Assembly (NCBI GenBank): GCA_902772895.1
Contig: CACYCN010000122.1
Coordinates: forward strand, 1 to 40,802
Direction of reading: 5' to 3'
DNA length: 40,802 nucleotides
Source: an uncultured Ruminococcus sp.
Lineage (GTDB): Bacteria > Bacillota > Clostridia > Oscillospirales > Acutalibacteraceae
A model generated the notes under the pieces. The model saw only the letters and a list, made by a program, of their open reading frames with translations. It made no database searches and was not told the DNA's origin. Shown piece by piece: positions 2,262 through 39,124 of the stretch (position 1 is the first letter of the stretch; every line of letters begins with the position of its first letter). Made by a program: the position numbers and the translations under genes.

Positions 2262-2273
2262 CGTCTTACCTCC

Positions 2274-6874: not shown

Positions 6875-6903
6875 TTGACATTTTAGACAGTATTATTTAT
6901 AAT
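6875..6903 (+). promoter_or_regulatory. Consensus promoter TTGACA-17-TATAAT heading the FHA island
   Basis: ttgaca at 6875-6880 and tataat at 6898-6903. The TTG at 6903 that the ORF track uses as a start lies inside the -10 box, so the true start is further downstream. Confidence 0.65.
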
Positions 6904-6968
6904 TGTATAGAAGAAATGTGGTATTGTGTCTGAAAGGAAATTTAATTCAGAAAGGAACCTATTCGGAA

Positions 6969-9248
6969 ATGAAGTTAAAAGAGTATGATATTTATGTGAT
7001 CGAAGGAGAATCGATTTGTAAATATAGTACCGGTATGTTCCCTAAAAGAGAGCTTACCGTTGGTACTGTCGGAACGGATATTATGGTTCGTACCCCCTCT
7101 GTTTCCAAACAGCATTTACAGATAAGATTCGGTGAAAACGGCGTCTCTTTTGCCGATCTTGGCAGCAGTAACGGCTCCTTTTTGTTTACCGGAAAAGGCT
7201 TTTTCCAGCTGGAACGCCTGAAGTATTTCGGCGGAAGACAGGGAAAAAATCTGGTGATGCTGGGAAATGCCGTTATGCTGCTGGTGGTGCTGTCACATGG
7301 AAAGGATTATGTCAGGATGCCCGTGCAGATGGGGCTGTCCATCGGACGCAGTACCAATTGCAGTATTGTGCTGGATCATGTCGGCGTATCTCGTAATCAT
7401 GCCCAGATCGTACCCGCTGAAGGCGGTAATATGATCCTCAGACCCATCGGTAAGAACGGGAGCTTTGTCAACGGAAAGGAACTGGATGGGGTTCATCAGC
7501 TGAAAGACGGCGACTATATCCAGATTCTCAATTACTCCTTTGTTTATTTCGGCAACAGTGTGATCTATCGGGATGTTGCGGTCGGCAGCGGTCTGGAAGT
7601 TTATCATCTGCTGAAAAAGGTCAAGGGTAAGGGCGGAAAGAAAAAAATTATTCTTAATGATGTGAGTCTTAAAATCGAAAGTAATGATTTTGTCGCTATT
7701 ATCGGCGGCTCCGGTTCCGGTAAGACCACTCTCATGAACGCTATCAGCGGATTTGATGATAAACTCACGGGCGGCGCCGTTTTCTATAACGGAATCGACC
7801 TGCTGGAAAATTTCGAAACTCTGAAAAGTGTGATCGGCTATGTGCCGCAGCAGGATATTATCTATGAAAATCTGACGCTGCGGAAAATGCTTCACTATAC
7901 CCTGAAACTCAAGTCGGGCGATGAGCTGACTAAAGAAGAAATGAACCGTAAAATTGATAAGGTATTGGAAATCGTTGAACTGACCCAGCATCAGCATACC
8001 TATATCAGAAAACTCAGCGGCGGTCAGAAAAAACGCGCCAGTATTGCCGTGGAACTGCTGGGCGATCCCAGCTTATTCTTCCTGGATGAGCCGACTTCCG
8101 GCCTCGATCCGGGAACGGAAGCCCATCTGATGCAGTCCCTCCAGAAACTTGCCAAAAATGAATCCAAAACCGTTATCCTCGTCACGCATAATACGCAGAA
8201 TCTCGATCTGTGTGATAAAGTTATCTTTATGGGCGCAGGCGGTAAAATCTGTTTCTGCGGCAATATCGAAGACGCCAAACAGTACTTCAAAACGGACGAT
8301 CTGATTAAAATCTATGAGGAAATCAGCGAACGTCCGGATTATTGGTCCGAAAAATATAAAAAGACTTTCAGCTTCTCCGGTTCATCCGCCAAACCGCAGA
8401 AATCAAAGCCGACAAGAGGCGTTAATTATTTCCGTCAGTTCGGGGTCCTGACTATCCGCTATGCCGAATTGATCAAGAACGATATGGCAAGACTGATTCT
8501 GCTGTTTGCGCAGCCGGTCGTGATGGGATTCCTGATGTTCTTTGTGGCCCGGGCACAGGTCTATGACTATTACGAAGATGCCAAGTCGATTTTCTTTGTG
8601 ATGTCCTGCGCGGCGATCTGGCTGGGCGTATTTAACTCGATTCAGGAGGTTTGTAAAGAAAGGGTCATCCTTAAACGAGAATATATGGGTAATGTCAAGA
8701 TACCGGTTTATATCCTTTCCAAGTATCTGATCCAGATCATTATCGCCCTGGTTCAGGCGGCTATTATGCTTCTGACATTTATGCTGACCATCGGACTGCC
8801 GGATATTGAACCGTTTATTTTCCCCAGTACGTTTATGGATATGTTCTTCGTCCTGTTTATGACGATTTTTACTTCCGCTGCGTTAGGACTGGTTATTTCG
8901 TCCTTTGTCAAGAGCAGCGACCGCGCTATGGCGATCGCTCCGTTTGCACTGATCGTGCAGTTGTTATTCTCCGGAATTCTGTTCAGCCTCAGCGGCTTTA
9001 CGGAGGTCCTTTCCTTCTTTACCGTCAGCAGATGGTCAATGGAAGCCTTTGGTAATCTGATGGATCTGAATAACATGAAACTGGTGTTACAGGATGCCTA
9101 TCCCCAGATCGCCCATTCCGTTGAATCGATGTTTGTCCATAGTCAGCCCCGTTACTGGCTGTCTATTGCCATGATGGGAATTATGATCTTCCTGCTGATG
9201 ATGATCAGTATGGTATCGCTTCGTAATATCTCCAAAAACGACAGATGA
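6969..9248 (+). CDS. FHA-FHA-ABC exporter: two N-terminal FHA domains, an ABC ATPase and an ABC-2 type permease in one polypeptide (Rv1747-like architecture)
   Basis: FHA1 is VGTVGTDIMVRTPSVSKQHLQI...SSNGSF, where the conserved Arg is replaced (GT). FHA2 is IGRSTNCSIVLDHVGVSRNHAQI...KNGSFVNG. Walker A GGSGSGKTT, signature LSGGQKKR, Walker B LFFLDEPTSGLD. Six C-terminal TM helices. Start set at the ATG at 6969 (MKLKEYD). Confidence 0.85.
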   Translation: MKLKEYDIYVIEGESICKYSTGMFPKRELTVGTVGTDIMVRTPSVSKQHLQIRFGENGVSFADLGSSNGSFLFTGKGFFQLERLKYFGGRQGKNLVMLGNAVMLLVVLSHGKDYVRMPVQMGLSIGRSTNCSIVLDHVGVSRNHAQIVPAEGGNMILRPIGKNGSFVNGKELDGVHQLKDGDYIQILNYSFVYFGNSVIYRDVAVGSGLEVYHLLKKVKGKGGKKKIILNDVSLKIESNDFVAIIGGSGSGKTTLMNAISGFDDKLTGGAVFYNGIDLLENFETLKSVIGYVPQQDIIYENLTLRKMLHYTLKLKSGDELTKEEMNRKIDKVLEIVELTQHQHTYIRKLSGGQKKRASIAVELLGDPSLFFLDEPTSGLDPGTEAHLMQSLQKLAKNESKTVILVTHNTQNLDLCDKVIFMGAGGKICFCGNIEDAKQYFKTDDLIKIYEEISERPDYWSEKYKKTFSFSGSSAKPQKSKPTRGVNYFRQFGVLTIRYAELIKNDMARLILLFAQPVVMGFLMFFVARAQVYDYYEDAKSIFFVMSCAAIWLGVFNSIQEVCKERVILKREYMGNVKIPVYILSKYLIQIIIALVQAAIMLLTFMLTIGLPDIEPFIFPSTFMDMFFVLFMTIFTSAALGLVISSFVKSSDRAMAIAPFALIVQLLFSGILFSLSGFTEVLSFFTVSRWSMEAFGNLMDLNNMKLVLQDAYPQIAHSVESMFVHSQPRYWLSIAMMGIMIFLLMMISMVSLRNISKNDR

Positions 9249-9549: not shown

Positions 9550-10284
9550 GTGGAGTGTTTGCTGGTTATCGGAATTTGTGACATTAATCCAAGTCACAGA
9601 GGAATCATCAAAAACTTAATAGAAGCTGTGTTTTTTGATCAGTCGGAAATTTCGGTCTCTGAATATGATAAGGCGGAAAAACTCATACAGGCTATCGGTA
9701 TGGGAAATCTGTCTTTCGATTTGGTGATCCTTGATGTTGCGTCCTGCGGCGGCTTATCGATTCCCGAGTACTTCAAAAACGGAGATATCCACACCGACGT
9801 AATAGTTTATTCCGATACGCCGGCGTTTGTTTTTGACGGCTATCGGTACGGTTTGTTTGATTATGTTCTGAAACAGCCCTCACTTGAAAATCTGCAGGAG
9901 TCGCTGACCCGCTATATCGCCGAAAAACTGAACTGTATGACGGAGTATCTCAGCGTCAGAACCAACGGCTGTATGCAGAATATCCGACTGGATAAAGTTA
10001 CCTATTTTGAAAGCCGCGGACGAAAGATTGCCGCGGTTTCTATGGAAGAAAAATTTGAGTTTTATCAGAAAATGGACGAGCTGCTGGCGGTATTGCCGAT
10101 CGGCAGCTTTGTGCGCTGCCATCAGAGCTATACCGTGAATATCAAGGCAATCTATTCCTATAGCTCGTCCTCCATCGTTTTGAAAAACGGACAGAGTATC
10201 CCGGTCAGCCGCAAGTATTATCAGGATCTGAAGATGATTTTTGAACCGTCAAATTTGTCTGAAAAACAGTCAATTATTACATAG
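9550..10284 (+). CDS. LytTR-family DNA-binding regulator with an atypical receiver-like N-terminal domain; no partner histidine kinase in the window
   Basis: C-terminal LytTR signature (IRLDKVTYFESRGRKIAAV...FVRCHQSYTVNIKAI...IPVSRKYYQDLK). The N-terminal domain keeps the DLVILDV Asp, but the usual N-terminal acidic pair is replaced (VIGICD). The start codon (GTG 9550) is uncertain. Confidence 0.75.
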   Translation: MECLLVIGICDINPSHRGIIKNLIEAVFFDQSEISVSEYDKAEKLIQAIGMGNLSFDLVILDVASCGGLSIPEYFKNGDIHTDVIVYSDTPAFVFDGYRYGLFDYVLKQPSLENLQESLTRYIAEKLNCMTEYLSVRTNGCMQNIRLDKVTYFESRGRKIAAVSMEEKFEFYQKMDELLAVLPIGSFVRCHQSYTVNIKAIYSYSSSSIVLKNGQSIPVSRKYYQDLKMIFEPSNLSEKQSIIT

Positions 10285-10374
10285 TTGCCTATTTTGAATC
10301 AGTTTGTAGTATAATAGTTCTAAAGCAAGGAATGTATCCTGCCGGATGTGTTCCGGATGCGGGAGGTTGAGGTT

Positions 10375-11103
10375 ATGGTCGATTATGCATTTGTTACGTC
10401 TGAGGGCGGCAGAGAAGTCAATGAAGATAGTGTTAATATTGTGAAACGGGATGAGAATCATTATTGTTTTCTGCTGGCAGACGGCCTTGGCGGTCACGGC
10501 CTGGGGGATGTGGCGTCCTCTTTGGCAGTCAAGAATTCACAGGATGTGTATATGGCGTTTTGTGAACAGGATAATGTGCTGGGAATGATTTTTGAGGCGG
10601 CGCAGAAACGTGTGTTATATGAACAGGAAAGACGCAGGGCGCATGCCGCTCTGAAAACAACGCTCACAGCCCTGACCATTGAAAACGGTGCGGCAAAATG
10701 GGGACATATCGGTGATTCCCGTATCTACTGTTTTCAGAATGACGCCGTCAGAAAACGTACCAAAGATCATAGCGTACCCCAGATGCTGGTGGATATGGGA
10801 AGGATCACGGAAGATCAGATCCGGAATCATCCGGACCGTAACCGCCTGCTGAGAGTTATCGGTGAAGAATGGTCCTCCATGAGTTATCAGCTGGAAGAAC
10901 CCTTTCCGGTGACGCAGGGAATGGCATTTCTCCTCAGCTCGGACGGCTTCTGGGAACTCATCACCGAAGAGGAAATGATCGCCTGTATGAAATGGCATAA
11001 GAGCGCGGAAGGCTGGCTGAATGATATGGCGGCGATCGTAAAGCAAAGAGGCGCCGGAAAACGCTCGGATAATTATTCCGCTATTGTCGTCCGGATCCGA
11101 TAG
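10375..11103 (+). CDS. PP2C-family Ser/Thr protein phosphatase (copy 1)
   Basis: NEDS, LLADGLGGHGLGDVASS, IGDSRIY, LLSSDGFWE and DNYSAIVV motifs. Start moved to the ATG at 10375, which has GGGAGG at 10361-10366. Confidence 0.85.
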   Translation: MVDYAFVTSEGGREVNEDSVNIVKRDENHYCFLLADGLGGHGLGDVASSLAVKNSQDVYMAFCEQDNVLGMIFEAAQKRVLYEQERRRAHAALKTTLTALTIENGAAKWGHIGDSRIYCFQNDAVRKRTKDHSVPQMLVDMGRITEDQIRNHPDRNRLLRVIGEEWSSMSYQLEEPFPVTQGMAFLLSSDGFWELITEEEMIACMKWHKSAEGWLNDMAAIVKQRGAGKRSDNYSAIVVRIR

Positions 11104-11114
11104 GAGGGAAGACT

Positions 11115-11645
11115 ATGTCATTGAAAATGTGTGATAAGGGTCATCACTATGATGACTCACTGTTTGCTTCCTGTCCCGTGTGCGCGGTGTCTGTGAATGA
11201 AACGCCGCAGGTGAATCCGCCGGTCAAGGTCAAACGGATTACCATCAGCCGCAAACAGACGGAGGATGCCGAAGAAAAAACCATCGCTTATCATTCCGAA
11301 TTCAAAGGAAATAATTATGTGACCGGATGGCTGATCTGCTCGGAGGGCGCGGAAAAGGGAAGAGATTACCGGCTGCATTACGGGTTTAACCGGATCGGAA
11401 CTTCCGGTTTGATGGATGTTTGTATCAACGGTGACCGGAAAATTGCCGACCGGTCGCATTGTTCCGTGGTATATGACAGCAAGGGTAATGAATTCTTTGT
11501 ATCTCCCGGAAAGGGAACCATTACTTATGTCAACGGTGAACTGCTGAAAAAATCAAGGGAACTTCATCAGGGGGATAAGATCGAGATCGGTGAAACGACA
11601 CTGGAATTTATTCCGTATTGCGGAGGGGATAAAAAATGGGACTGA
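11115..11645 (+). CDS. Zinc-ribbon + FHA protein (Zn-FHA paralog A, degenerate pThr pocket)
   Basis: N-terminal zinc-ribbon MCDKGHHYDDSLFASCPVC. C-terminal FHA-like module GWLICSEG...NRIGTSGLMDVCINGDRKIADRSHCSVVY...YVNGE. C-terminal tail FIPYCGGDKKWD. The stop overlaps the next gene's ATG. Confidence 0.75.
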   Translation: MSLKMCDKGHHYDDSLFASCPVCAVSVNETPQVNPPVKVKRITISRKQTEDAEEKTIAYHSEFKGNNYVTGWLICSEGAEKGRDYRLHYGFNRIGTSGLMDVCINGDRKIADRSHCSVVYDSKGNEFFVSPGKGTITYVNGELLKKSRELHQGDKIEIGETTLEFIPYCGGDKKWD

Positions 11646-13549
11646 AAAATTGGACAATCCGGATGGCAGTCGGTATCGCGGTCCTCACGGCGCTGACAGC
11701 GGTGATCCCGTCATTCGGCGCAAAAGCCGCATCGGATTCCCTGGCGGTTTCCGAGATCGAACAGGTCTATGTGAATATGCCGGAGATCCGGGTGTATTTC
11801 AGTCATCTGGACGATGATGTCAGAACGCCCGGCGATATCAGGGCTTTTTATGATGATACCACTATGGTCTGCGAGTCTGTTTCGTATTTTTCGGAAACGG
11901 GTGACGGGGTGGACTATTATGTCCTGTTGGATACGTCGTCTTCTATCCTGAACGCTACCTTCGAAAAAATGAAGGAAGCCATTAAAAGCTTTAATAACGA
12001 GCTGGGAGAAAAAGACCGGATGACACTCATCACCTTCGGAGATGATGAAAAGGAATTATACCGGTCAGACCGCAGCGGTGACGATCTGGCAACGATTCTG
12101 GATAAACTCAATGCTACCAGTAACTCTACCTCTCTGTTTGCGGGATTATCCCTGGCGGCTCAGCTGTCCGACAGTAATAACAGCGATAATTACCGGCGGA
12201 AGATCTGTCTGCTTTATACGGACGGTTATGACAGGGCTGCCGGTAAAGAAACCATTGATGAAACCAAGGATAAACTGATTAAGTATAATCTGCCGGTTTA
12301 TACGATTTCCGCAGTGGCGACGACTTCGGAGGATAACGCCAAGTTAGGCGAACTGTCCAGAACGACCGGCGGCGCAATGAAGGTGCCGGGAAATGATAAG
12401 ACCTTCACCGATATGACCAGGGAAGTGGTGAAGGAGATCGCTGATTCGAATGTGCTGATCTTTAACGCAGATAATAATCTTGTCAGTCCGAATGAAAAGA
12501 AAAGTCTTTCGGTGCAGTTTGTGAAGAAAGATATTACCAAAAGTAAGGATGTCTATTTTATCCGCAGCCAGAAGGATGATACCGCTCCCAAAATTGAGAA
12601 AGTGGAGTCAGATGGCACCGATAAAATCAAGGTTTATTTCACGGAGGATGTGCTGGATGCGGATAATCCGAAGAACTATCAGGTAACCAATGCCCAGGGC
12701 ATTGATATGATCGTCACAGAGGCGGTCTATGAAAAGAAAGACGGAAAGTATATGGCTACCGTTACTTTCAGTACGCCGGTGATCAAGGGAGATTATACGA
12801 TTTCCTGCCGTAATATCTGTGATAATTCCATGCAGAAGAATGCCATCGTCGGCAGTGTGGATCAGTATCTGGAAGGGGTGGAAGCGCCCAATGCGTTCTT
12901 GCAGTTCATCCTCTCCTGGCAGGGAATTATCCTTGCGGCAGTCGTGGTGATCGCAACGGCAGTATTGGTCATCGTTATCATCCGCTCCCGTAAAAAATCC
13001 GCCAGAGCCGCTAAGCTTGCCGCAGAGAAAGCCGCTAAGGAGGCCGCCATAGAGGCTGCCAAGAATACGCCTCCCAAAGTAGTGCAGGTGGTACAGCCCG
13101 TGATGCAGACACCTGCGCCCACTCCCGCTCCTGCTCCGGCTGTTGCGCCGAATCCGCCGCCTCAGAAAGATCCGGTGCCGCATCCCAGACAACAGGTCAT
13201 CAATGATATTGAAAGACAGGCGCCTAAGTATGTGGTCAATATCCGGGAAACCAACAGTATCTTTATGAATATCCAGCTCGAAGGCGGCGAAAGCAAAATG
13301 GTCGAACTGGAATTTGAGGATAAGTTAGTGGTAGGTAGAAGTCAGAACTGTGATGTCTGCATTGATGATAAGTTTATTGCCAGAAATCAGTTTGTGATAG
13401 AAAAACAGAACAATCAATATTATGTAACGGATCTGAATTCCACAAACGGAACTTCCGTCAACGGAATCAGAATTACAGGAAAACACCGTCTGGAAAAGGG
13501 TGATGTGATCAGCGCCGGTATGGTGCGGATGACAGTGTCCTGGAAGTGA
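11636..13549 (+). CDS. Single-pass membrane protein: signal/anchor, extracellular vWA (MIDAS) and Ig-like module, TM, Ala/Lys- and Pro-rich linker, cytoplasmic FHA
   Basis: MIDAS DxSxS (LLDTSSSI) with later T and D (LLYTDGYD). Ig-like segment DDTAPKIEKVESDGTDKIKVYFTEDV. TM GIILAAVVVIATAVLVIVII. Linker PAPTPAPAPAVAPNPPPQ. FHA LVVGRSQNCDVCIDDKFIARNQFVI...STNGTSVNG. The ATG at 11636 overlaps the upstream stop by 10 nt, and GGAGGGG lies upstream. Confidence 0.8.
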   Translation: MGLKNWTIRMAVGIAVLTALTAVIPSFGAKAASDSLAVSEIEQVYVNMPEIRVYFSHLDDDVRTPGDIRAFYDDTTMVCESVSYFSETGDGVDYYVLLDTSSSILNATFEKMKEAIKSFNNELGEKDRMTLITFGDDEKELYRSDRSGDDLATILDKLNATSNSTSLFAGLSLAAQLSDSNNSDNYRRKICLLYTDGYDRAAGKETIDETKDKLIKYNLPVYTISAVATTSEDNAKLGELSRTTGGAMKVPGNDKTFTDMTREVVKEIADSNVLIFNADNNLVSPNEKKSLSVQFVKKDITKSKDVYFIRSQKDDTAPKIEKVESDGTDKIKVYFTEDVLDADNPKNYQVTNAQGIDMIVTEAVYEKKDGKYMATVTFSTPVIKGDYTISCRNICDNSMQKNAIVGSVDQYLEGVEAPNAFLQFILSWQGIILAAVVVIATAVLVIVIIRSRKKSARAAKLAAEKAAKEAAIEAAKNTPPKVVQVVQPVMQTPAPTPAPAPAVAPNPPPQKDPVPHPRQQVINDIERQAPKYVVNIRETNSIFMNIQLEGGESKMVELEFEDKLVVGRSQNCDVCIDDKFIARNQFVIEKQNNQYYVTDLNSTNGTSVNGIRITGKHRLEKGDVISAGMVRMTVSWK

Positions 13550-13581: not shown

Positions 13582-14859
13582 ATGATGTTGTGTCCAAATT
13601 GTTTTAAGTATACTTTTGACGGAAACGTCTGTTCGTCCTGCGGCTATCAGCCCAACGGCGATAATTTTGAAGATATGAAAATGTTCTATAAGCTGAAGAA
13701 CCGTTATTTGATCGGACGGTCCATCGGCGCCGGCGGTTTCGGCATCACCTATCTGGCGTATGATACACTGACAGACAGCCGGGTATGCGTGAAGGAATAT
13801 TTCCCGATGGGTCTGGTGGTGCGCAGCAATGACGGCGTCACCATCCAATATACCCGTCAGAACCGTATGGAGGAATTTCAGCACGGAATCGAACGTTTTG
13901 TGGGAGAAGCAAGGGTCATCAGTGAAATGAGTAATATTTCCGGCGTGGTCAATATTATTGATTGCTTCGAAGAAAACGGTACCGCTTATTATGTCATGGA
14001 ATATCTGGACGGTCTTTCACTCAAGAGAATCGTGCCGGAAGGCGGAATGGATCTGAATGCTGCCAATGATATTATCCGTAAGATCGGCAGAAATATCGAT
14101 CTTGTCCATAAGGAAAAGGGCTATCTTCACAGAGATATCAGCCCCGAAAATATCATGATACTGGCATCCGGACGGGTGGTGCTGATTGATTTCGGCAGCG
14201 CCAAGAATTTCTTTATGAGCAACAGTAACTATACCATTACCCTGAAACATGGTTTTGCGCCGATTGAACAGTATTCTTCTACGGATTCCCAGGGTCCTTA
14301 TACGGATCTTTATGCCCTTGCCAGTACCTACTATTATATGCTCACCGGTAAGGTGATCCCCCGCGCAACGGATCGTCTCAGCGGAGCGCAGTATACGCCG
14401 CTGCATCTGGCAAGATCGGATGTCAGTAAGGCGTTATCGGATGCGGTTGACCGTGCCCTGATGCTGAATCCTGCCGAACGTACCCATACGATCGGGGAAT
14501 TTATCGATGAACTGGAACAGGCGATCGGCGCCAAGAGCGTGGAACTGGTGGAACATTATGTCCGGGTCAATATCGACGGACAGGATGTCAATAAAGTAAA
14601 AGTGGAGCCGGATAAGTGGATGACAGTCGGACGTTCCGTTAAAAGTGATATTGTATTTCCGAATTGTGATAATGTCACCCGTACCCATTGTAAGCTGATG
14701 TTTGATACGTATCGCCAGCGGTATTGTCTGGAGGATTGTTCCACTAACGGTACTTATATCAATTATGTCAGAATGGAAAAAGGAATGCGGTATTTTGTAG
14801 GTGAGACGGATCTGATCATTCTCGCCAATACCCGTTATCGATTAGTATTGGGAGGTTAA
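13582..14859 (+). CDS. Hanks-type Ser/Thr protein kinase with N-terminal zinc-ribbon and C-terminal FHA (predicted active)
   Basis: Zinc-ribbon MLCPNCFKYTFDGNVCSSCG. G-loop GAGGFG, VCVKE Lys, HRDISPEN, DFG, APIE. C-terminal FHA MTVGRSVKSDIVFPNCDNVTRTHCKL...STNGTYIN. Confidence 0.9.
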   Translation: MMLCPNCFKYTFDGNVCSSCGYQPNGDNFEDMKMFYKLKNRYLIGRSIGAGGFGITYLAYDTLTDSRVCVKEYFPMGLVVRSNDGVTIQYTRQNRMEEFQHGIERFVGEARVISEMSNISGVVNIIDCFEENGTAYYVMEYLDGLSLKRIVPEGGMDLNAANDIIRKIGRNIDLVHKEKGYLHRDISPENIMILASGRVVLIDFGSAKNFFMSNSNYTITLKHGFAPIEQYSSTDSQGPYTDLYALASTYYYMLTGKVIPRATDRLSGAQYTPLHLARSDVSKALSDAVDRALMLNPAERTHTIGEFIDELEQAIGAKSVELVEHYVRVNIDGQDVNKVKVEPDKWMTVGRSVKSDIVFPNCDNVTRTHCKLMFDTYRQRYCLEDCSTNGTYINYVRMEKGMRYFVGETDLIILANTRYRLVLGG

Positions 14860-14863
14860 GCGG

Positions 14864-15661
14864 ATGTATTCTTCGGACGAAAGTAACTTTATTACCGAAA
14901 AATATGTGCAGGAATGTCGGGCAACCATGGTGGCTTCGACCATTATCGGCACAAGAAAATATCAGCAGGATTCCTATGGCTGTATTGAAACGCCTGACGG
15001 GGGACTGGCGGTTGTCTGTGACGGCATGGGTGGTCTGGAAGGCGGCGAAAAAGCCAGTACATTGGCGGTAGGAATGCTGATGGAGGATTATCTGCGTACC
15101 CCGGTGACGGATTATAAGGAGTTCTTTTATCAGGAAGCCGTTAAACTGGATGATCTGGTCTATCATATTACGGATGAACAGGGAAAACTATTGGGTGCCG
15201 GTACCACGATCGTAGCCGTGCATATCCAGGGAAATATGATCCATTGGCTGTCGGTGGGAGACAGTAAAATCTATGTGATCCGCAGTAATGCCATGCAGTG
15301 TATTGTCAGAGAACATAATTATCGCATGATGCTGAACGATCTGTATATGAAGGGCAAAATCTCCATTGAACAGTACCGGAGTGAGGAAAGTAAGGCGGAA
15401 GCATTGACCAGCTTTCTCGGCATCGGTAATGTTTCCTTGATCGACCAGAGTGAAACACCCGTGGAACTGCTGAAAGGAGATATTATCCTGCTGTGCAGTG
15501 ACGGATTGTATAAATCTTTGTCGGATGATAAGATACTGGCGATTATTACCGATAACTTTTTTGACCTGCAGCGGGCTGCCAATGAACTGACAGCTTCTGC
15601 GCTGAAGTATTCCGGCAGGGGTCAGGATAATACGACGGTAGTGCTGGTGAGATATAGCTGA
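14864..15661 (+). CDS. PP2C-family Ser/Thr protein phosphatase (copy 2)
   Basis: QQDS, VVCDGMGGLEGGEKAS, VGDSKIY, LLCSDGLYKSL and GQDNTTVVLV motifs. GGGAGG RBS. Starts 4 nt after the kinase stop. Confidence 0.85.
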   Translation: MYSSDESNFITEKYVQECRATMVASTIIGTRKYQQDSYGCIETPDGGLAVVCDGMGGLEGGEKASTLAVGMLMEDYLRTPVTDYKEFFYQEAVKLDDLVYHITDEQGKLLGAGTTIVAVHIQGNMIHWLSVGDSKIYVIRSNAMQCIVREHNYRMMLNDLYMKGKISIEQYRSEESKAEALTSFLGIGNVSLIDQSETPVELLKGDIILLCSDGLYKSLSDDKILAIITDNFFDLQRAANELTASALKYSGRGQDNTTVVLVRYS

Positions 15662-15735
15662 CCGGATGGTGATTCTCTGAACGGTACTGACTGAATCGAG
15701 AGTTGACCGGGAAGAGCATCGTATTGAGAGAACGG

Positions 15736-16125
15736 ATGAGTAAATTGAGTATTTATGACAGAATGGGTTCACATACAAAGTCCCAGATAACGATTGTGCA
15801 TACCACAGGTACTCTTCGGAGAGGCTGTGTGACCGTCCTGAGCGGTGAAGGCGCAGGCAGATCCGTGACGGTTGACGCAATGGAAAAAGTGAAGATCGGC
15901 AGAAACGAAAAGGATTGTGAACTGGTGATCCCTTCCAGGGATATCAGCAGAATTCATTGTATTGCCGAATATGACAGTGAACGGTGTATGTTTATTGTAA
16001 CGGACTGTTCCATGAACGGAGTGTTTATTAATGGACAGCGGCTGCCGCTTAATATTCCTGTGCTGTTCGCAGGAGGAACCATTCTTATGCTGTCAAACGA
16101 TTCGCATCAGATCCTTCTGCGCTGA
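15736..16125 (+). CDS. Stand-alone FHA-domain protein (canonical pocket)
   Basis: VKIGRNEKDCELVIPSRDISRIHCIAEY...CSMNGVFINGQRL. Start set at the ATG at 15736; the track's TTG 15703 start is less likely. Confidence 0.8.
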   Translation: MSKLSIYDRMGSHTKSQITIVHTTGTLRRGCVTVLSGEGAGRSVTVDAMEKVKIGRNEKDCELVIPSRDISRIHCIAEYDSERCMFIVTDCSMNGVFINGQRLPLNIPVLFAGGTILMLSNDSHQILLR

Positions 16126-16182
16126 AGAGGATCTGATGACCAGACCATTAATGGTGTATCAATGTTTATAGAAGGTGATAGG

Positions 16183-17184
16183 ATGTATTTATGTCTGTCG
16201 TGTATGAATGAAATACCGGAGCAGGGGAGAGATGTGTGTCCGTTATGCGGATTCTCTGCCAGCAGTTATCATGTTCCCATGCACTGGCTGGAAGCCGGTT
16301 CTTTGCTGAACCAGCGCTATTATATCGGTAAGGCCCTGAGAACGGATGATTACGGTATTTCTTATAACGCTTATGACGTGGTGATGCAGCGCAGAGTGGT
16401 GATCCGGCAGCTGATGGTGCGCAGCCGGATGCCCAGTGATATCACGATGCTCAGACGGGATGAACCGTTCTTTACGCTGCAGCATGCCGAAAGCTTTTAT
16501 CAGACGTATCGGGAAGAGGCGGATGTGGAGATTTCTTCTCTCCCCAGAATCTATACCTATGGCAGATGCGGGAATGTGCTGTATGCCGTAGAAGAATTTA
16601 TTCCCGGAGCAACACTGGCTCAGTATGTGAAAGACAGCGGCGCCAAGAGCTTTGACGGAACCAAAAAACTGCTGCTGCCGGTGATCATTGCCCTGAAACT
16701 GCTGCAAAGCAGAGGGGTGCATCACGGCAATCTTACCCCGGATCGGATCATCAAAACCGATAAATCCTGTGTGCTGGTAGATCTGACGGGTGTGGATACA
16801 ACGGCGGACGATAAAAACCGGGATCAAGCTGCCCTGACTCCCGAACAAAAGGATGTCAGACATTTCCTGCGGATCTTCCTGTCCGTGCTTTACGGCAGTG
16901 AAACTATGGTGGATGCGGCAATTATCAATGAGGAATTCTTTGACAGAACGGAACCGTATCTTCCGGAAGATGCCAAACAGTATATCTATCAGGCGTTCCA
17001 TCCGGAAGAGCAACAAACCGATATCTCTATACAGGGTGTGCTGAATGTGATTTTTAAATGCGGCGAGATCGCGGTAGGAAAAAAGAACCAGCCGATTCAG
17101 GCAATACCGCCGAAATTCCTGACCGATGCCGCAGAAGCTTCCGGTATGGCGGTTGATAAAATCATCACATCCGTTACCGGCTGA
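16183..17184 (+). CDS. Zinc-ribbon pseudokinase (kinase-like fold with catalytic motifs lost)
   Basis: Same N-terminal layout as the kinase (MYLCLSCMNEIPEQGRDVCPLCG...LNQRYYIGKAL). The G-loop is absent (LRTDDYGISY). The beta3 Lys is Arg (VVIRQL). HRDxxPxN reads HHGNLTPDR. DFG reads DLTG. Start set at the ATG at 16183. Confidence 0.7.
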   Translation: MYLCLSCMNEIPEQGRDVCPLCGFSASSYHVPMHWLEAGSLLNQRYYIGKALRTDDYGISYNAYDVVMQRRVVIRQLMVRSRMPSDITMLRRDEPFFTLQHAESFYQTYREEADVEISSLPRIYTYGRCGNVLYAVEEFIPGATLAQYVKDSGAKSFDGTKKLLLPVIIALKLLQSRGVHHGNLTPDRIIKTDKSCVLVDLTGVDTTADDKNRDQAALTPEQKDVRHFLRIFLSVLYGSETMVDAAIINEEFFDRTEPYLPEDAKQYIYQAFHPEEQQTDISIQGVLNVIFKCGEIAVGKKNQPIQAIPPKFLTDAAEASGMAVDKIITSVTG

Positions 17185-17299
17185 TTCTTCACAAAATGCT
17201 GCTGCCCTCTCTCTTCGGTTTGCCTCTGAAGCGGAAATCGCCGGTGATAGGACGGCTTGTGTCAATTTTTACATTTTTTCCGTTAAAACATACATTGTT

Positions 17300-17328
17300 T
17301 TGACATTTGTTGCTTTATTTGGTATAAT
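17300..17328 (+). promoter_or_regulatory. Consensus promoter TTGACA-17-TATAAT heading the duplicated Zn-FHA / TM-FHA sub-operon
   Basis: ttgaca at 17300-17305 and tataat at 17323-17328. AAAGGAG RBS precedes the ATG at 17386. Confidence 0.65.
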
Positions 17329-17385: not shown

Positions 17386-18468
17386 ATGACAAAAAGATGT
17401 GTAAACGGTCACTATTATGACGGTGACAAATTCGCCATGTGTCCGTACTGCGGAGCCGGTGATATGGACGGAAATGTCGATAACGGCGAAGCTACCATCC
17501 CGGTATTCCAGGGAGAAGATATCTTCTCTTCCTCGGGCAATACACCGACTGCCTCCAATTATGATGATGCCGGTGATATGGCTACCGTGATGTTGGACCA
17601 GCCGCCGATCGGAGGAAATGATCCCGGTTTCGGAGGCGTTGAATACAGTCCTTTAATGTCTGCACCTATGGCGCAGGATCCGGATGCGACCGTTTCAATG
17701 GGCTCCGGCTCCGGTATTACCGAAGCGATTCAGGGCGTTCCCATGGATTTCGGGATGGGCCAGTCCACCATGGCAAATCAGGATGAAATGGAAGAACTCA
17801 GAAAACAAAAGGAAGAACTGAGAAAACAAAAGGAAGAACTGGAAAAAGCCAGAATGGAAGCGGAAAATGCCAGGGCAGAAGCGGAAAGACTCAAACAGGA
17901 GGCGGAGGAAGCCAAACGTCAGGCTGCCGCTCAGCAGATGCCCACTCAGCAACCCGTTCCGCCGGCACCGCCTGCGGCTCCGATACCTACGGCGCCTCCC
18001 GCTTCATCAGGTCCTGTCAACTACGGCGATCTGCTGAATGATGCCAAGAATAATAAGGCTGCGGCTGCGGATGATGAAAAAACCGTTCGTCTGATGCCGA
18101 GCGGTAATCTGTCTACCGAGCCTATCGTCGGTTGGCTGATCGGTGTCAACGGTCCGTATTACGGCGAATGTTTTGAATTGAAGAACGGGAAGAACTTTAT
18201 CGGAAGAGATTCTTCCATGGACGTTGTTCTGGGCGGAGATAATTCCGTTTCCCGTATCCGTCATGCGGTGGTTCTGTATGAGCCCCATGAAAGAATTTTT
18301 ATCGCTCAGCCCGGTGAGTCAAGAGAACTGTTCTATATCAATGACCGTGTGGTTCTGAAAAACGAACAGCTCAAACCCTATGATATCATCTTAGTGGGAT
18401 CAACCAAGTTGGTGTTCTTCCCGCTTTGCGGCAGTAAGTTCTCATGGGAAGATCTGAAGGAGGAATGA
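17386..18468 (+). CDS. Zinc-ribbon + disordered/coiled-coil linker + FHA protein (Zn-FHA paralog B)
   Basis: RCVNGHYYDGDKFAMCPYCG. Charged heptad-like segment EELRKQKEELRKQKEELEKARMEAENARAEAERLKQEAEEAKRQ. Pro-rich stretch. FHA-like GWLIGVNG...NFIGRDSSMDVVLGGDNSVSRIRHAVVLY...AQPGESRELFYINDRVV. Tail FFPLCGSKFSWEDL. Confidence 0.8.
   Translation: MTKRCVNGHYYDGDKFAMCPYCGAGDMDGNVDNGEATIPVFQGEDIFSSSGNTPTASNYDDAGDMATVMLDQPPIGGNDPGFGGVEYSPLMSAPMAQDPDATVSMGSGSGITEAIQGVPMDFGMGQSTMANQDEMEELRKQKEELRKQKEELEKARMEAENARAEAERLKQEAEEAKRQAAAQQMPTQQPVPPAPPAAPIPTAPPASSGPVNYGDLLNDAKNNKAAAADDEKTVRLMPSGNLSTEPIVGWLIGVNGPYYGECFELKNGKNFIGRDSSMDVVLGGDNSVSRIRHAVVLYEPHERIFIAQPGESRELFYINDRVVLKNEQLKPYDIILVGSTKLVFFPLCGSKFSWEDLKEE
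17791..17842 (+). repeat. In-frame 21-nt tandem repeat (about 2.5 units, EELRKQK) inside Zn-FHA paralog B
   Basis: gaagaactcagaaaacaaaag / gaagaactgagaaaacaaaag / gaagaactgg. Confidence 0.9.
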
Positions 18469-18471
18469 TCC

Positions 18472-19743
18472 ATGAATTATCCAGTCAATAGCAGTCCTGC
18501 GCCGGCGCAGGCACCTCCCACCAAGTCGGTCAAAGCTCTCGTGGCAATGATCGGTGCAATTGTATGCGCAGCGGCAGCTGTCGGTATGATGTTTTTGCCG
18601 TTGGTTACGATCAATAACGGAATCGGTGATTCCGTTACGATCAGTATGTTTGAATACTCCTCTCTCACCACACTGACAACGGCTGACGGGTTCAATCTTC
18701 AGAAAGACGGCGTATTTTCTATGATCGCTACGGTTCTGATGATTTTCCTGGCAGTAGTGCTGGTTGTCGTGGCCGTTTGTAAGATCCTGAGTAAAGTCAA
18801 GGCTTGCCGTATTATCAGCCTGATCGTTTCGATCCTGGGTGTTCTGGGCGGACTGGCCGTTCTGCTTTACGGTTTACTGTTCGGTTCTTTGGTTGTGGTC
18901 GCTTCTTCTCTGGGCGGTTCCGGTTCGATGGGCGTTGCGCCTTTCCTGACACCGGTGTTTACGATCGGTACAATGGTGTTCTGTATTATTGATATGACGG
19001 CTCACAGAGCGGCTCCCGGCGCTCCGTATGCCTTCCCGGCAGATCCGGCTGCTCAGCCGATGCCTGCGATGAATTCCATGCAGCCTCCGATGCCTGCAAT
19101 GGATCCCATGCAGCAGCCCATGCCCGCTCTGGACCCCATGCCGCAGCCCATGCCTGCGATGGATTCTATGCAGCCTCCTATGCCTGCGATGGATCCCATG
19201 CAGCAGCCCATGCCCGCAATGGATCCTATGCAGCCTCCTATGCCCCCGATGGATCCGGTACAGTCGGCGCCTCCTATGGATCCCATTAACTTTGAAGCCA
19301 ATCAGGTTCCTGTGGTTCCCCCGACACCGCTGGGTGATTTCCAGGTGGATCCGCTCGCTTCTACCATTCCTGTTTTTGGCAGTCAGAATGCCGACTTTGA
19401 TCCTGACGATCCGCCCACAACCGTTCAGGAAGGCGGTCTGGTTGGTATCAGCGGCGATTATCAGGGCGCCGATATTCCGATGCGTTCCGGTGAGAAGATT
19501 CTGATCGGTCGTGACGCTTCGGTTTGTAATCTGGTGATCGGCGCGGAAACCAAGGATATCAGCCGTACACATTGTTCTGTCAAGTATGACGCTTATATCA
19601 ACTGCTATAAGGTCATTGATATGTCCTCTAACGGTACCTTTGTGAATGGTCAGCAGCTTCCCAAAAATCAGGAAGCACAGCTCCCTGCCGGAACAATTAT
19701 TTCTCTCGGTAAGGGCGCCAATAAGTTTAAACTCAAGGGTTGA
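18472..19743 (+). CDS. Polytopic membrane protein (about 4 TM) + Pro/Met-rich decapeptide repeats + C-terminal FHA (TM-FHA paralog 1)
   Basis: TM helices in the first 170 aa. Repeat tract PMPAMDPMQQ x7. Canonical FHA ILIGRDASVCNLVIGAETKDISRTHCSVKY...SSNGTFVNGQQL. Starts 4 nt after the upstream stop. Confidence 0.8.
   Translation: MNYPVNSSPAPAQAPPTKSVKALVAMIGAIVCAAAAVGMMFLPLVTINNGIGDSVTISMFEYSSLTTLTTADGFNLQKDGVFSMIATVLMIFLAVVLVVVAVCKILSKVKACRIISLIVSILGVLGGLAVLLYGLLFGSLVVVASSLGGSGSMGVAPFLTPVFTIGTMVFCIIDMTAHRAAPGAPYAFPADPAAQPMPAMNSMQPPMPAMDPMQQPMPALDPMPQPMPAMDSMQPPMPAMDPMQQPMPAMDPMQPPMPPMDPVQSAPPMDPINFEANQVPVVPPTPLGDFQVDPLASTIPVFGSQNADFDPDDPPTTVQEGGLVGISGDYQGADIPMRSGEKILIGRDASVCNLVIGAETKDISRTHCSVKYDAYINCYKVIDMSSNGTFVNGQQLPKNQEAQLPAGTIISLGKGANKFKLKG
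19057..19284 (+). repeat. 30-nt in-frame tandem repeat, about 7.5 units, encoding P-M-P-A-M-(D/N)-(P/S)-M-(Q/P)-(Q/P)
   Basis: Units begin at 19057, 19087, 19117, 19147, 19177, 19207 and 19237, with a partial unit at 19267. The units differ mainly at synonymous or near-synonymous positions. Confidence 0.95.
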
Positions 19744-19895: not shown

Positions 19896-20579
19896 ATGAT
19901 AAATACGGTAAGATGCCCAAACAATCATTTTTATGATGCATCCAGATTTCAGGTTTGCCCGTACTGCGGAGCTGCGCCGGGCGTGGCTGCTCCCCAAACA
20001 CAGCCGCAAATGTATCCCCCTGTACAACCGTCACAATCTCCGCAGTCGGTAAATCATATGCCCCCTCAGAATCCCGTTTCACAGCCGGCAATGCCTTCCG
20101 CTCAGCCGGTTATGGTTACGCAGCCCTTCCCCGGTCAGCCCGCCGCTCCTTCCGCCAATACCGCCAATATCTTCCAGCAGTTTACCCAGAGTAACTCTAC
20201 GACCCAGTCTTCGGACAGCAATAAGCAGCCTACGGTAGGTTGGCTGGTTTGTATCGGCGGTTCTTCAAAGGGTAAGTCCTTTGCCATCAGAGAGAACAGA
20301 AACTTTATCGGTCGTTCTCCGTCGATGGATATCGCTATTGTCGATGATAACTCGATTTCGAGAGAAAAACACGGCATTATTACCTATGTTCCCAAACAGA
20401 GATTCTTCCTGGCACAACCCGGTGAATCAAGAGAACTGTTCTATGTCAATGATAAGGTCGTTCTGGATAATGTGGAACTGAGTGCCTATGATAAACTGGA
20501 AATTGGTAAGTCTACATTCCTGTTTGTTCCGCTGTGTGGTTCCGAATTCTCCTGGGATGACTACAGCAGGGATGAATAA
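19896..20579 (+). CDS. Zinc-ribbon + Pro/Gln-rich linker + FHA protein (Zn-FHA paralog C)
   Basis: RCPNNHFYDASRFQVCPYCG. FHA-like GWLVCIGG...NFIGRSPSMDIAIVDDNSISREKHGIITY...AQPGESRELFYVNDKVV. Tail FVPLCGSEFSWDDY. Clearly paralogous to 17386-18468. Confidence 0.8.
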   Translation: MINTVRCPNNHFYDASRFQVCPYCGAAPGVAAPQTQPQMYPPVQPSQSPQSVNHMPPQNPVSQPAMPSAQPVMVTQPFPGQPAAPSANTANIFQQFTQSNSTTQSSDSNKQPTVGWLVCIGGSSKGKSFAIRENRNFIGRSPSMDIAIVDDNSISREKHGIITYVPKQRFFLAQPGESRELFYVNDKVVLDNVELSAYDKLEIGKSTFLFVPLCGSEFSWDDYSRDE

Positions 20580-20581
20580 TC

Positions 20582-21667
20582 ATGAAAAAAGCAATATTAA
20601 TTATTTTCCGGATTCTGATCCCGCTGCTTTGCGCTGCGTCAGCGGCTGCGTTTTTCCTTCCGTCTATCGTTCTGGACTTTGCAAAGGAAGACAGTGAGAG
20701 TATTGAAAAATATGTCGATGACTATCGTGACGCAGAAGAATCTAAAAAAGCATCCTATGAAATGGGCGGTAAGTCGGATGTCATGATTTCCATTGAAGAC
20801 AGCCGGATCTCCGTCGCTGACGTCATTGTGATCCATTCCAAGACAGACGGTAATGAACAGATCGAAAATGCTTCACAGTCTGTCGATATCATTTATAATG
20901 GTATTACAACCACCGTCAATGATAATTATGTCCTGATCTTCATTCTGATTGCGGTTTCCGTGATTTTCCTGCTGGGATCCATGATCTTTTCCGCAATTGG
21001 CGGCAATAAGTATTTCAGTATTTTTGCCATGATCTTTTGCGGGGTTTTCATGGCGGTCAACGGTGCGCTGGCTGCCATTATCCAGACGGTTCTGATTCCG
21101 GCTCTGGATGAGAAAGACCGGATCGGGGCATCCGCTTCTCCGATGCTGTATGCCCTTGTCGCTGCTGCCGCACTGGCTATGGTGCTGGCTATCCTTCGTA
21201 TGATCGTGGAACGGCTTCCGGATCGGAAAAAAGTAAATGTTGCCGTTTCTTCCGGCGATATGGAACAGACGCTTGCAGTGAATCCGAGAACGTATCTCAA
21301 TCAGTCAACGGTCCGTGCGTATCAGCCGCTTGCGCCTCAGCCTGAAGTTAAGCCGGTGATTACCTGTCTGGCAGGAACCTGTCAGGGAATGGACGTTCCG
21401 ATTGAGAATAACGAGACAATTATCATCGGTCGGGAAGCGTCGGTTTGTAATATTATCGCTAAAAATGCGAAGGTCAGCCGTCAGCATTGTTCGGTTTCAT
21501 ATGATCGGAAAAGAAATTCGTATATTGTAACAGATATGTCGCATAACGGCACGTTCCTGGATAACGGAACCAGATTGCTTAAGGATCATCCTAATCTCCT
21601 GCCTGCCGGCAGTGTGATCTATCTGATGGACAGAGAAAATATGTTCCGGTTGGGAGAAAAATCCTGA
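20582..21667 (+). CDS. Polytopic membrane protein with C-terminal FHA (TM-FHA paralog 2)
   Basis: N-terminal TM, about 100-aa exposed segment, 3-4 further TM helices. Canonical FHA IIIGREASVCNIIAKNAKVSRQHCSVSY...SHNGTFLDNG. Starts 3 nt after the upstream stop. Confidence 0.8.
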   Translation: MKKAILIIFRILIPLLCAASAAAFFLPSIVLDFAKEDSESIEKYVDDYRDAEESKKASYEMGGKSDVMISIEDSRISVADVIVIHSKTDGNEQIENASQSVDIIYNGITTTVNDNYVLIFILIAVSVIFLLGSMIFSAIGGNKYFSIFAMIFCGVFMAVNGALAAIIQTVLIPALDEKDRIGASASPMLYALVAAAALAMVLAILRMIVERLPDRKKVNVAVSSGDMEQTLAVNPRTYLNQSTVRAYQPLAPQPEVKPVITCLAGTCQGMDVPIENNETIIIGREASVCNIIAKNAKVSRQHCSVSYDRKRNSYIVTDMSHNGTFLDNGTRLLKDHPNLLPAGSVIYLMDRENMFRLGEKS

Positions 21668-21742: not shown

Positions 21743-21793
21743 ATATTTAAGACAATGTCAGGTGAAGGGCTTGTTTGACATTGTCTTAAATAT
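21743..21793. repeat. Perfect 18-bp inverted repeat with a 15-nt spacer in the 536-bp non-coding gap
   Basis: atatttaagacaatgtca (21743-21760) / tgacattgtcttaaatat (21776-21793), followed by tttatt. Confidence 0.9.
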
Positions 21794-39006: not shown

Positions 39007-39124
39007 GAAAACAGAAATCAAATCATGATCTGGTAACAATATGGCAGTCCGATAGTCGTGAGGATCGCCTGCCATATTTACACCGACCCTCACGACATCA
39101 TATTTAATTTGGAGGTATTAACTC

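Follow-up and report, generated by a model that had tools for sequence, protein, structure and literature searches.

A putative zinc-ribbon pseudokinase in a conserved operon of kinase, phosphatase and FHA genes from uncultured Clostridia

Pseudokinases are recognised in bacteria but are almost entirely uncharacterised, and the two with a known mechanism, MviN and EssB/YukC, are membrane proteins in large machines. In the pseudokinase domain of MviN (MurJ) from M. tuberculosis a threonine in the tail is phosphorylated by PknB and then recruits the FHA domain of FhaA (PMC12599244). In EssB/YukC, a pseudokinase of Firmicutes, the kinase-like domain contacts the FHA domains of YukB/EssC. A published bacterial kinome atlas, together with a 2025 review, lists seven pseudokinase families plus EssB/YukC, none of them with a zinc ribbon; the sequences in the atlas were gathered through PF00069 homology, and its criterion for a pseudokinase is a kinase fold without at least one of the VAIK Lys, the HRD Asp and the DFG Asp. 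Here we describe a gene at 16183..17184 on the plus strand of a 40,802-nucleotide (nt) stretch of DNA from an uncultured Ruminococcus sp. (contig CACYCN010000122.1, positions 1 to 40,802; this whole stretch is called the window). We regard it as very probable that its product has a kinase fold but no catalytic activity, is under constraint and belongs specifically to its operon. Bacterial pseudokinases and pseudokinase–FHA partnerships are already known kinds; what appears to be new is an undescribed family in which a soluble, stand-alone protein combines a Cys4 ribbon, a dead kinase domain and a conserved tail and is encoded in a conserved operon of its own. The gene is laid out as follows.

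16171..16178, plus strand: Shine-Dalgarno-like GAAGGTGA, read from the sequence
16183..17184, plus strand: pseudokinase gene, 333 amino acids (aa) and a stop codon, with the open reading frame (ORF) open from 16162
16183..16257, plus strand: N-terminal four-Cys zinc ribbon, C4/C7/C19/C22, with a CPxCG knuckle; the cysteines are invariant in the family alignment
16300..17052, plus strand: degenerate Hanks-type kinase domain, about residues 40-290, supported by profile, AlphaFold2 (AF2), Foldseek and motif tables
17053..17181, plus strand: family-specific C-terminal tail with a disordered linker, PPxxL, a short helix (residues 311-319) and a conserved T329-S330

The ATG at 16183 is the likely start because the Shine-Dalgarno-like element ends 4 nt before it, the orthologs begin with M-x-x-C and a length of 333 aa is also that of the copy in the database. 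This copy, P0001, is an essentially identical protein in a public protein collection. All orthologs share the M-x-x-C start, and the ribbon-less P0004 has a mis-called start. The ribbon matched rubredoxin knuckles weakly (E ~1e-3, motif level only), and in a BLASTP alignment the same N-terminal module was found on the active kinase encoded at 13582..14859 (the 13582 kinase). A Cys4 knuckle module directly N-terminal to a Hanks kinase domain is also present in PknG, in a pathway with the FHA protein GarA/OdhI, and the family profile aligned to PknG from profile position 14, inside the ribbon. However, PknG is an active actinobacterial kinase with a TPR domain, and the ribbon similarity (E ~1e-3) is at the level of the motif. 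A Pfam and feature scan of the 333-aa product found no FHA domain, no transmembrane (TM) segment and no other Pfam domain. The protein is made up of ribbon, kinase fold and tail. An earlier note on this DNA had described a stand-alone zinc-ribbon protein without a C-terminal FHA domain, and this was upheld. An antisense ORF of 340 aa (16243..17265, minus strand) covers the whole gene and was rejected as a chance shadow ORF; the longest antisense stop-free runs were 78-228 aa in eight orthologs.

The Pfam model PF00069 (Pkinase) matched the product with 12.7 bits (E = 0.084) over residues 125-200 only, below the gathering cutoff of 31.7 bits. NCBIfam kinase models matched with E-values of 4e-7 to 1e-5, and BLASTP aligned the protein to the 13582 kinase with 25% identity across residues 1-201 (E = 2e-10). 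This alignment paired the CxxC...CxxC ribbons and, given as pseudokinase/kinase, LNQRYYIGKAL/LKNRYLIGRSI, VVIRQ/VCVKE, HHGNLTPDR/HRDISPEN and VDL/IDF; the likeness in ribbon and in ribbon-to-core spacing that the earlier note had reported was therefore recovered with every quoted motif pair aligned. A profile of 17 family members matched 4eqm (S. aureus Stk1/PknB) with E = 2e-14 over profile positions 39-275, that is, over the entire kinase domain with both lobes, and it also matched StkP, PpkA, PknG and PknB. An AF2 model built on the 17-sequence alignment reached a mean predicted local distance difference test (pLDDT) of 86.2 and a predicted TM-score of 0.81, and the N-lobe strands, αC, αD to αF and αH/αI were visible; a model with a 4-sequence input reached a pLDDT of only 44.8 and was discarded. 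The pLDDT was below 50 at residues 297-306 and 329-333. The top Foldseek matches of the model were Stk1 (the best), PknA and PknB, with a probability of 1.00 and TM-scores of 0.58 (query-normalised) and 0.70 (target-normalised). By profile and by structure comparison, the product is a protein with a Hanks-type (eukaryotic-like) protein kinase fold.

The catalytic columns were read from MAFFT and hidden Markov model (HMM)-guided alignments in which 21 family members were set against 124 intact zinc-ribbon kinases, the operon kinase and M. tuberculosis PknB, whose sequence is identical to 6b2p/1mru. In the window protein the loop, Lys, Glu, HRD, Asn and DFG columns read R-D-G, R, T, H-G-N, R and D-L-T, and the key residues of the domain are D55, R75, H181-G182, D200-L-T-G and D224, with a shortened activation segment. 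The GxGGFG loop reads R-T-D-D-Y-G, with only the third of the three glycines left; across the family it is x-D-x-x-G, in which the first Gly is gone, the second is an invariant Asp and the third is kept. The β3 Lys column held Arg in 20/21 members and His in the remaining one, never Lys. No member had a Glu in the αC Glu column, which held T/F/S/V/A in the HMM-guided register and Tyr/Phe/Cys in the MAFFT register. HRD has become H-G-x, with Gly in 21/21 members and N/C/Q/L/A/M/S at the position of the catalytic Asp (Asn in 9/21, Asp in 0/21), and the catalytic Asn is kept in 7/21. DFG has become D/E-x-x-G, with Asp in 15/21 members (D200 in the window protein) and Glu in 4/21. The activation segment has lost about 17 residues, with 24 residues from DFG to αF compared to 41 and no APE/P+1 loop, while the αF Asp (D224) is invariant. 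No compensating Lys was conserved anywhere in the N-lobe in the family alignments.

The family does not have the residue set of an active Ser/Thr kinase (Gly loop, Lys, Glu, HRD Asp, Asn, DFG Asp), and none of its members has the VAIK Lys or the HRD Asp, which makes it a pseudokinase family under the atlas definition. By this loss of residues, the protein is classed as a catalytically inactive Hanks-type protein that would not turn over ATP, and the lack of both a conserved catalytic-base residue and a compensating Lys argues against phosphotransfer. It is more readily a true pseudokinase than a decaying copy, because the catalytic loss is shared by the whole family and constraint on the gene is evident. 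The earlier note had reported losses in four motifs from the single sequence. Its missing GxGxxG loop was confirmed for the first two glycines, with the third retained, and its Lys-to-Arg replacement held in 20/21 members. Its reading of HRDxxPxN as HHGNLTPDR was right about the catalytic Asp, and to this can be added that the HRD His is retained. Its reading of DFG as DLTG stood only for the lost F-G register (D-x-x-G), since the Asp itself is retained. The HMM-guided alignment that the note had asked for confirmed the register of the columns; for the window protein it recovered the DFG Asp and no intact Lys, HRD Asp or Asn. Two features went beyond the note, namely the activation segment and APE region shortened by about 17 residues and the conserved, family-specific C-terminal tail.

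The family is rare and is found in uncultured gut or rumen Clostridia. A word-indexed search of 5.8 billion clusters gave 4, then 9 clusters of the family, and no Pfam domain or source name was attached to any of them. An exhaustive profile search of 1.84 billion representatives gave about 15 full-length members of 276-372 aa (E 1e-92 to 1e-36), and larger zinc-ribbon kinases matched the family profile only over residues 1 to ~210 (3,833 proteins at E <1e-10). In GTDB, a close relative was present in one species genome only, a metagenome-assembled genome (MAG) of an uncultured Clostridia, and a second copy, 35% identical, was present in an uncultured Ruminococcus MAG. Intact ORFs persist to 26% identity, with R45, Y46, D55, D65, M68, R70, F105, G153, G182, D224 and P261 invariant. 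Because the window protein fails the PF00069 threshold used for collecting sequences, the family lies outside the current kinome atlases, and it follows that pseudokinase families exist below this threshold and hence out of their reach. An origin as a recent tandem duplicate of the neighbouring kinase was rejected, as the neighbour scored 86 bits on the family HMM compared to 88-120 bits for unrelated zinc-ribbon kinases.

The genes around the pseudokinase gene were assigned by a Pfam scan of the locus and are listed here together with a promoter.

9550..10284, plus strand: LytTR response regulator
10348..11103, plus strand: PP2C
11115..11645, plus strand: zinc-ribbon FHA protein
11636..13549, plus strand: VWA-TM-FHA protein
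13582..14859, plus strand: zinc-ribbon Ser/Thr kinase with a C-terminal FHA domain (Pkinase 8e-27, FHA 2e-12), the candidate active partner
14864..15661, plus strand: PP2C phosphatase (PP2C_2 8e-11)
15703..16125, plus strand: small stand-alone FHA protein directly upstream of the pseudokinase gene (FHA 7e-13)
17300..17328, plus strand: perfect sigma-70 consensus promoter, TTGACA, 17 nt, TG-n-TATAAT (12/12 match, with the extended -10 TG)
17386..18468, plus strand: zinc-ribbon-FHA protein
18472..19743, plus strand: TM-FHA protein
19896..20579, plus strand: zinc-ribbon-FHA protein
20582..21667, plus strand: TM-FHA protein

Every catalytic residue is intact in the aligned sequences of the 13582 kinase and its four orthologs, and eight FHA proteins are encoded in the region, so that the proposed location beside an active zinc-ribbon kinase in an FHA-rich operon was upheld. 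The true start of the small FHA protein is probably an internal Met, as its orthologs are 118-121 aa long. The gene order was kept in the related loci L001/L004, L005, L006 and L008/L009 at 40-48% identity. A PP2C gene and/or the small FHA gene precedes the pseudokinase gene in 9/9 distinct loci, including those with members that are 28-35% identical. The small FHA gene is directly upstream in 7/9 and is missing in L003 (54% identity) and L010 (35%), and even short contigs with 28-29% identical members show PP2C, FHA and pseudokinase (L014) or FHA and pseudokinase (L015). The active kinase-FHA gene is found upstream in all six loci, the window counted, whose contigs extend that far, the PP2C gene is syntenic wherever the contig runs far enough upstream, and the downstream FHA genes and the upstream string of genes are syntenic in relatives as well.

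The promoter at 17300..17328 lies in a 200-nt gap 3′ of the pseudokinase gene. The same 12/12 sigma-70 consensus follows the L003 ortholog (3545-3573), and one is also found upstream of the LytTR gene in L001 (2853-2881), L005 (3372-3400) and L006 (2472-2500). Promoters before the LytTR gene and after the pseudokinase gene fit a unit that begins with the regulator and ends with the pseudokinase, and the sequence fits the pseudokinase gene being the last in a conserved transcription unit of LytTR, PP2C, FHA, VWA-FHA, kinase-FHA, PP2C, small FHA and pseudokinase. Just 3′ of the gene at 20582..21667, a hairpin with a 20-bp stem followed by a T-rich run (21745..21791, plus strand) probably terminates the transcription unit of the downstream FHA genes. 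No Rfam elements were found in the window. Membership in a defence system was also considered and rejected: PADLOC gave partial, generic kinase-fold matches only (the best to PD-T4-6, 3.9e-16, residues 40-207) and no match to the VWA, FHA and LytTR proteins, and neither the full-length kinase match nor the partner genes of the anti-phage kinase systems PD-T4-6, MADS mad6 and Mokosh MkoA were found. The flanks are housekeeping genes with conserved synteny to OrnDC and MIP; with only generic PADLOC matches and such flanks, there is no recognisable defence island.

The surface of the N-lobe provided the first indication of a role. The positions equivalent to R10, L33 and D76 of PknB are R45 (21/21), M68 (21/21) and T125 (20/21) in the family, and these three are its best-conserved surface positions. 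In PknB the three residues were mutated to break a back-to-back N-lobe dimer that allosterically activates the kinase, and StkP needs the same kind of dimer to be active in vivo (PMC13434768); PknB mutants L33D and D76A, with the PDB entries 3ORI and 3ORM, are listed in PMC8541300. The 124 active zinc-ribbon kinases have R/K, L (103/124) and D (91/124) at these positions. The operon kinase, taken as the 13582 kinase and its orthologs, keeps the Arg and the Asp, and its L33-equivalent varies (T/N/T/M/R). A co-adapted interface with the operon kinase was considered and rejected, since this position is merely variable there and shows no clear covariation. Compared to the dimers of PknB, PknD and StkP, the pair here would be a heterodimer with a dead kinase as one partner, and the predicted interface has Thr in place of Asp76 and Met in place of Leu33. 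That a dead kinase keeps this N-lobe face, though in changed form, is in line with a part in dimerisation or allosteric control.

The second indication came from the tail. T329-S330 is the sole conserved Ser/Thr site within the low-confidence, disordered part of the AF2 model (T in 16/20 and S in 19/20 members), it stands 2-5 residues from the C-terminus, and we consider it a candidate phosphosite. Pfam and PDB searches with this family's C-terminal tail gave no significant match. A helix-turn-helix or LysM-like motif in the tail was rejected, as HTH_31 (E = 0.15, in 1/12 members) and the LysM protein 4uz2 (E = 0.12) were not significant. Candidate readers of a phosphosite are encoded nearby: five FHA domains of the region, the small FHA protein at 15703 among them, keep the phosphothreonine (pThr)-binding residues GR, S(T)-x-x-H and NG, while four are non-canonical (11115, 11636, 17386 and 19896).

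Two of the non-canonical FHA genes, 17386..18468 and 19896..20579 (plus strand), are paralogous; both have a divergent FHA domain with S-R-x-x-H, one extra residue and N-D for N-G, and share the C-terminal motif PLCGSxFSWxD, and the 17386..18468 product also has an E/K/R-rich, coiled-coil-like segment. Inside 18472..19743, a 30-nt (10-codon) tandem repeat at 19054..19256 (plus strand; 6.8 copies, 79% identity) encodes a Pro/Met-rich stretch of the PMPAMDPMQQ type between the membrane segment and the FHA domain. A short N-terminal CxxC...CxxC ribbon is found on six proteins within about 11 kb, the products of 11115, 13582, 16183, 17386, 19896 and 22204, that is, on the kinase, the pseudokinase, three FHA proteins and one TM protein. 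The recurrence of the ribbon suggests a common docking or localisation module of the whole pathway.

We propose that the pseudokinase would act as a soluble, non-enzymatic subunit of a Ser/Thr phospho-signalling module. The back face of its N-lobe (R45, M68, T125) would pair with the N-lobe of the active zinc-ribbon kinase or of a second pseudokinase, and this pairing would tune the activity of the kinase allosterically. Thr329-Ser330 in the disordered tail would be phosphorylated by the 13582 kinase and the phosphorylated tail read by a canonical FHA domain of the operon, with the small upstream FHA protein as the first candidate, and the two PP2C phosphatases would reset the system. This idea of a partner or scaffold, which extends that of the earlier note, is backed by the synteny of nine loci down to 28% identity, the canonical FHA protein next to the gene, the Thr-Ser in the tail and the invariance of the N-lobe face. 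Taken together, as an N-lobe contact with the 13582 kinase, a phosphorylated tail presented to an FHA domain, or both, we find the proposal somewhat better than an even bet, and we would place less confidence in either half alone.

MviN is the closest described parallel, and it is classed as ActPs3. Both are Hanks-fold pseudokinases in which the K and HRD motifs have degenerated, and both are accompanied by FHA proteins and an active Hanks kinase. In MviN, too, constraint is concentrated at the back-to-back positions of the N-lobe (PMC12599244). Both have a Thr in the C-terminal tail, which in MviN is a documented, FHA-read phosphosite and here a candidate. MviN has lost its activation loop, and ActPs3 is marked by the loss of this loop and of all three motifs, whereas here the Lys and the HRD Asp are lost, the segment is about 17 residues shorter and the DFG Asp is mostly retained. 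In contrast to the domain of a membrane flippase in Actinobacteria, the window protein is a soluble, stand-alone zinc-ribbon protein of Clostridia, encoded in one operon with a kinase, two PP2Cs and eight FHA proteins. Neither the membrane association of ActPs3, by a C-terminal TM segment or a fusion to MurJ, nor its actinobacterial lineage was found here, the hosts being uncultured Clostridia and a Ruminococcus MAG, and there is no specific sequence relationship, as the nearest relatives of the family are zinc-ribbon kinases. The family is small and soluble, and one conserved operon brings it together with its presumed kinase, two phosphatases and FHA readers of both the canonical and the non-canonical kind. 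It would therefore be a compact bacterial system for studying the control of a live kinase by a dead one, or the scaffolding of phosphothreonine readers.

Zinc-ribbon kinases with more than one kinase module offer another parallel. Among the top matches, an intact module was joined to at least one degenerate module in 14/20 multi-module proteins (P0015, P0020-P0023, P0025, P0030, P0032, P0033, P0036, P0040, P0077, P0119, P0126). These tandem arrays are metagenomic proteins of 2-4 modules, and P0015 has four modules in 1291 aa. The fused degenerate modules were rejected as orthologs of the pseudokinase family, since they scored higher on the active-kinase HMM; by these scores they are independent degenerations and not family members. 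The arrays look like a repeated, independent rise of fused kinase-pseudokinase pairs within one bacterial kinase superfamily. As in JAK JH2-JH1, plant tandem kinases and P0015, P0020 and P0021, an intact and a degenerate paralogous module are paired in the window locus, but here in separate genes, which suggests that the zinc-ribbon kinase superfamily has repeatedly yielded kinase-pseudokinase pairs, both fused and split. In a bolder version of our proposal, the pseudokinase would be the trans-encoded counterpart of the dead modules in the tandem arrays, an obligate heterodimeric allosteric subunit that binds through an asymmetric N-lobe face (R45, M68, T125 against R and D of the kinase), and its phosphorylated Thr-Ser would then nucleate an ordered multi-FHA assembly. 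We consider this version speculative and rather improbable; if true, it would be a bacterial multi-protein analogue of JAK-like signalling, governing an envelope or cell-wall process in Clostridia.

Several points weigh against the proposed pairing and tail phosphorylation. Ordinary kinases conserve R45 and Y46 too, so that the invariance of the two may partly reflect the stability of the fold. The canonical R10-D76 salt bridge cannot form symmetrically because D76 is replaced by Thr, and the hydrophobe equivalent to L33 is not conserved in the operon kinase, which can be read both ways for a back-to-back interface. In the tail, the pT+3 position that is usually read by FHA domains is absent in some members, given that the Thr stands so close to the end. 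The fusion proteins support a kinase-plus-pseudokinase logic by analogy only. Finally, the pseudokinase may still bind nucleotide, as the DFG Asp, the HRD His and the β3 Arg75 are conserved.

Three other explanations were weighed against the proposed kinase partner. The pseudokinase could be a phosphorylation-independent, FHA-binding scaffold of the EssB/YukC type, in which the pseudokinase domain itself, and not a phosphorylated tail, binds one or more FHA domains and nucleates a multi-FHA assembly but does not act on the kinase directly. EssB/YukC resembles the window protein in its degraded catalytic motifs and Gly loop and its attenuated activation loop. From E. coli, a host that has no Hanks kinase, the pseudokinase domain of YukC co-purifies with the FHA domains of YukB (PMC9600267). 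The abundance of FHA proteins in the operon, four non-canonical FHA domains among them, and the small FHA gene as the tightest neighbour of the pseudokinase gene would suit such a scaffold. However, EssB/YukC is a bitopic membrane protein of a type VIIb secretion locus, its FHA partners have lost their pThr-binding residues, and binding does not depend on phosphorylation (PMC9600267). The adjacent FHA protein at 15703, unlike the YukB/EssC FHA domains, keeps all pThr-binding residues, and the pseudokinase persists without the small FHA protein in L003 and L010, two of the nine loci. Type VII secretion genes (FtsK/EssC, WXG100, EsaA) are absent from the pseudokinase locus, and the protein has no TM segment to anchor it in a membrane. 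We judge this scaffold to be unlikely.

A less likely explanation still, and one to which we give little credence, is that the protein is a nucleotide-binding switch or an atypical enzyme, which would hold its ligand through Arg75, Arg70, His181 and Asp200 for sensing or for a non-canonical reaction (compare WNK, CASK, SelO, SidJ, DYD and ActPs2). D55, R75, H181, G182 and D/E200 form a conserved, non-random set in the active site, and the change of β3 Lys to Arg with a kept DFG Asp and HRD His resembles DYD and ActPs2. For both of these ATP binding was predicted by AlphaFold 3 (PMC12599244). DYD (O'Boyle et al. 2025) shares the β3 Arg and the absence of the αC Glu with the family, and ActPs2 shares the β3 Arg and, with some members, Asn in place of the HRD Asp. 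DYD is nevertheless membrane-associated and keeps HRD, the catalytic-loop Asn and a D-Y-D motif, in contrast to H-G-x, D/E-x-x-G and no TM segment here, and ActPs2 has a deleted DFG and is nested in the actinobacterial Act2, in contrast to a kept DFG Asp and Clostridial-type zinc-ribbon kinases as nearest relatives. Both lie above the Pfam Pkinase threshold used for collection, whereas the window family is soluble, lies below it and has a ribbon and a tail. Two of the three loop glycines are lost, and an invariant acidic residue stands where the backbone amides that contact the phosphates belong. By analogy with VRK3, an acidic residue in the Gly loop should repel ATP. The position of the catalytic base has no conserved residue, the catalytic Asn is found in just 7/21 members, a compensating conserved Lys in the N-lobe is lacking, and a structural salt bridge in place of the K-E pair can account for D55 and R75.

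A competitive decoy or inhibitor, a kinase mimic that damps signalling by competing for a ribbon or N-lobe docking site on a membrane partner or the VWA-FHA protein, would explain why the ribbon and its spacing to the N-lobe equal those of the active kinase and why ribbons on six proteins suggest a common docking mode, but the family has a conserved tail of its own, and its invariant N-lobe residues M68 and T125 differ from those of the kinase, which speaks against simple mimicry. This is the least credible explanation of all.

Other features of the window include further FHA genes. At 891..3944 (minus strand), a penicillin-binding protein transpeptidase gene (891..2261) follows a gene of the FtsW/RodA family (2274..3944) with an N-terminal FHA domain. 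In the mycobacterial cluster fhaA-fhaB-pstP-rodA-pbpA-pknA-pknB, FHA and RodA are separate genes, in contrast to the fusion at 2274..3944. Between the MIP and LytTR genes, at 6903..9248 (plus strand), there is an ABC transporter gene whose product has the same architecture as M. tuberculosis Rv1747, with a pair of N-terminal FHA domains plus an ATPase and an ABC-2 permease. The orthologous loci L005 and L006 lack this gene, so that it appears to have been inserted into the signalling region in a lineage-specific way. The stretch at 33367..40726 (plus strand) encodes a 1879-aa protein with DUF7601/DUF5979 repeats and, after it, an LPXTG-anchored protein with a SpaA fold; the two look like a Gram-positive pilus or adhesin pair that is unrelated to the pseudokinase.

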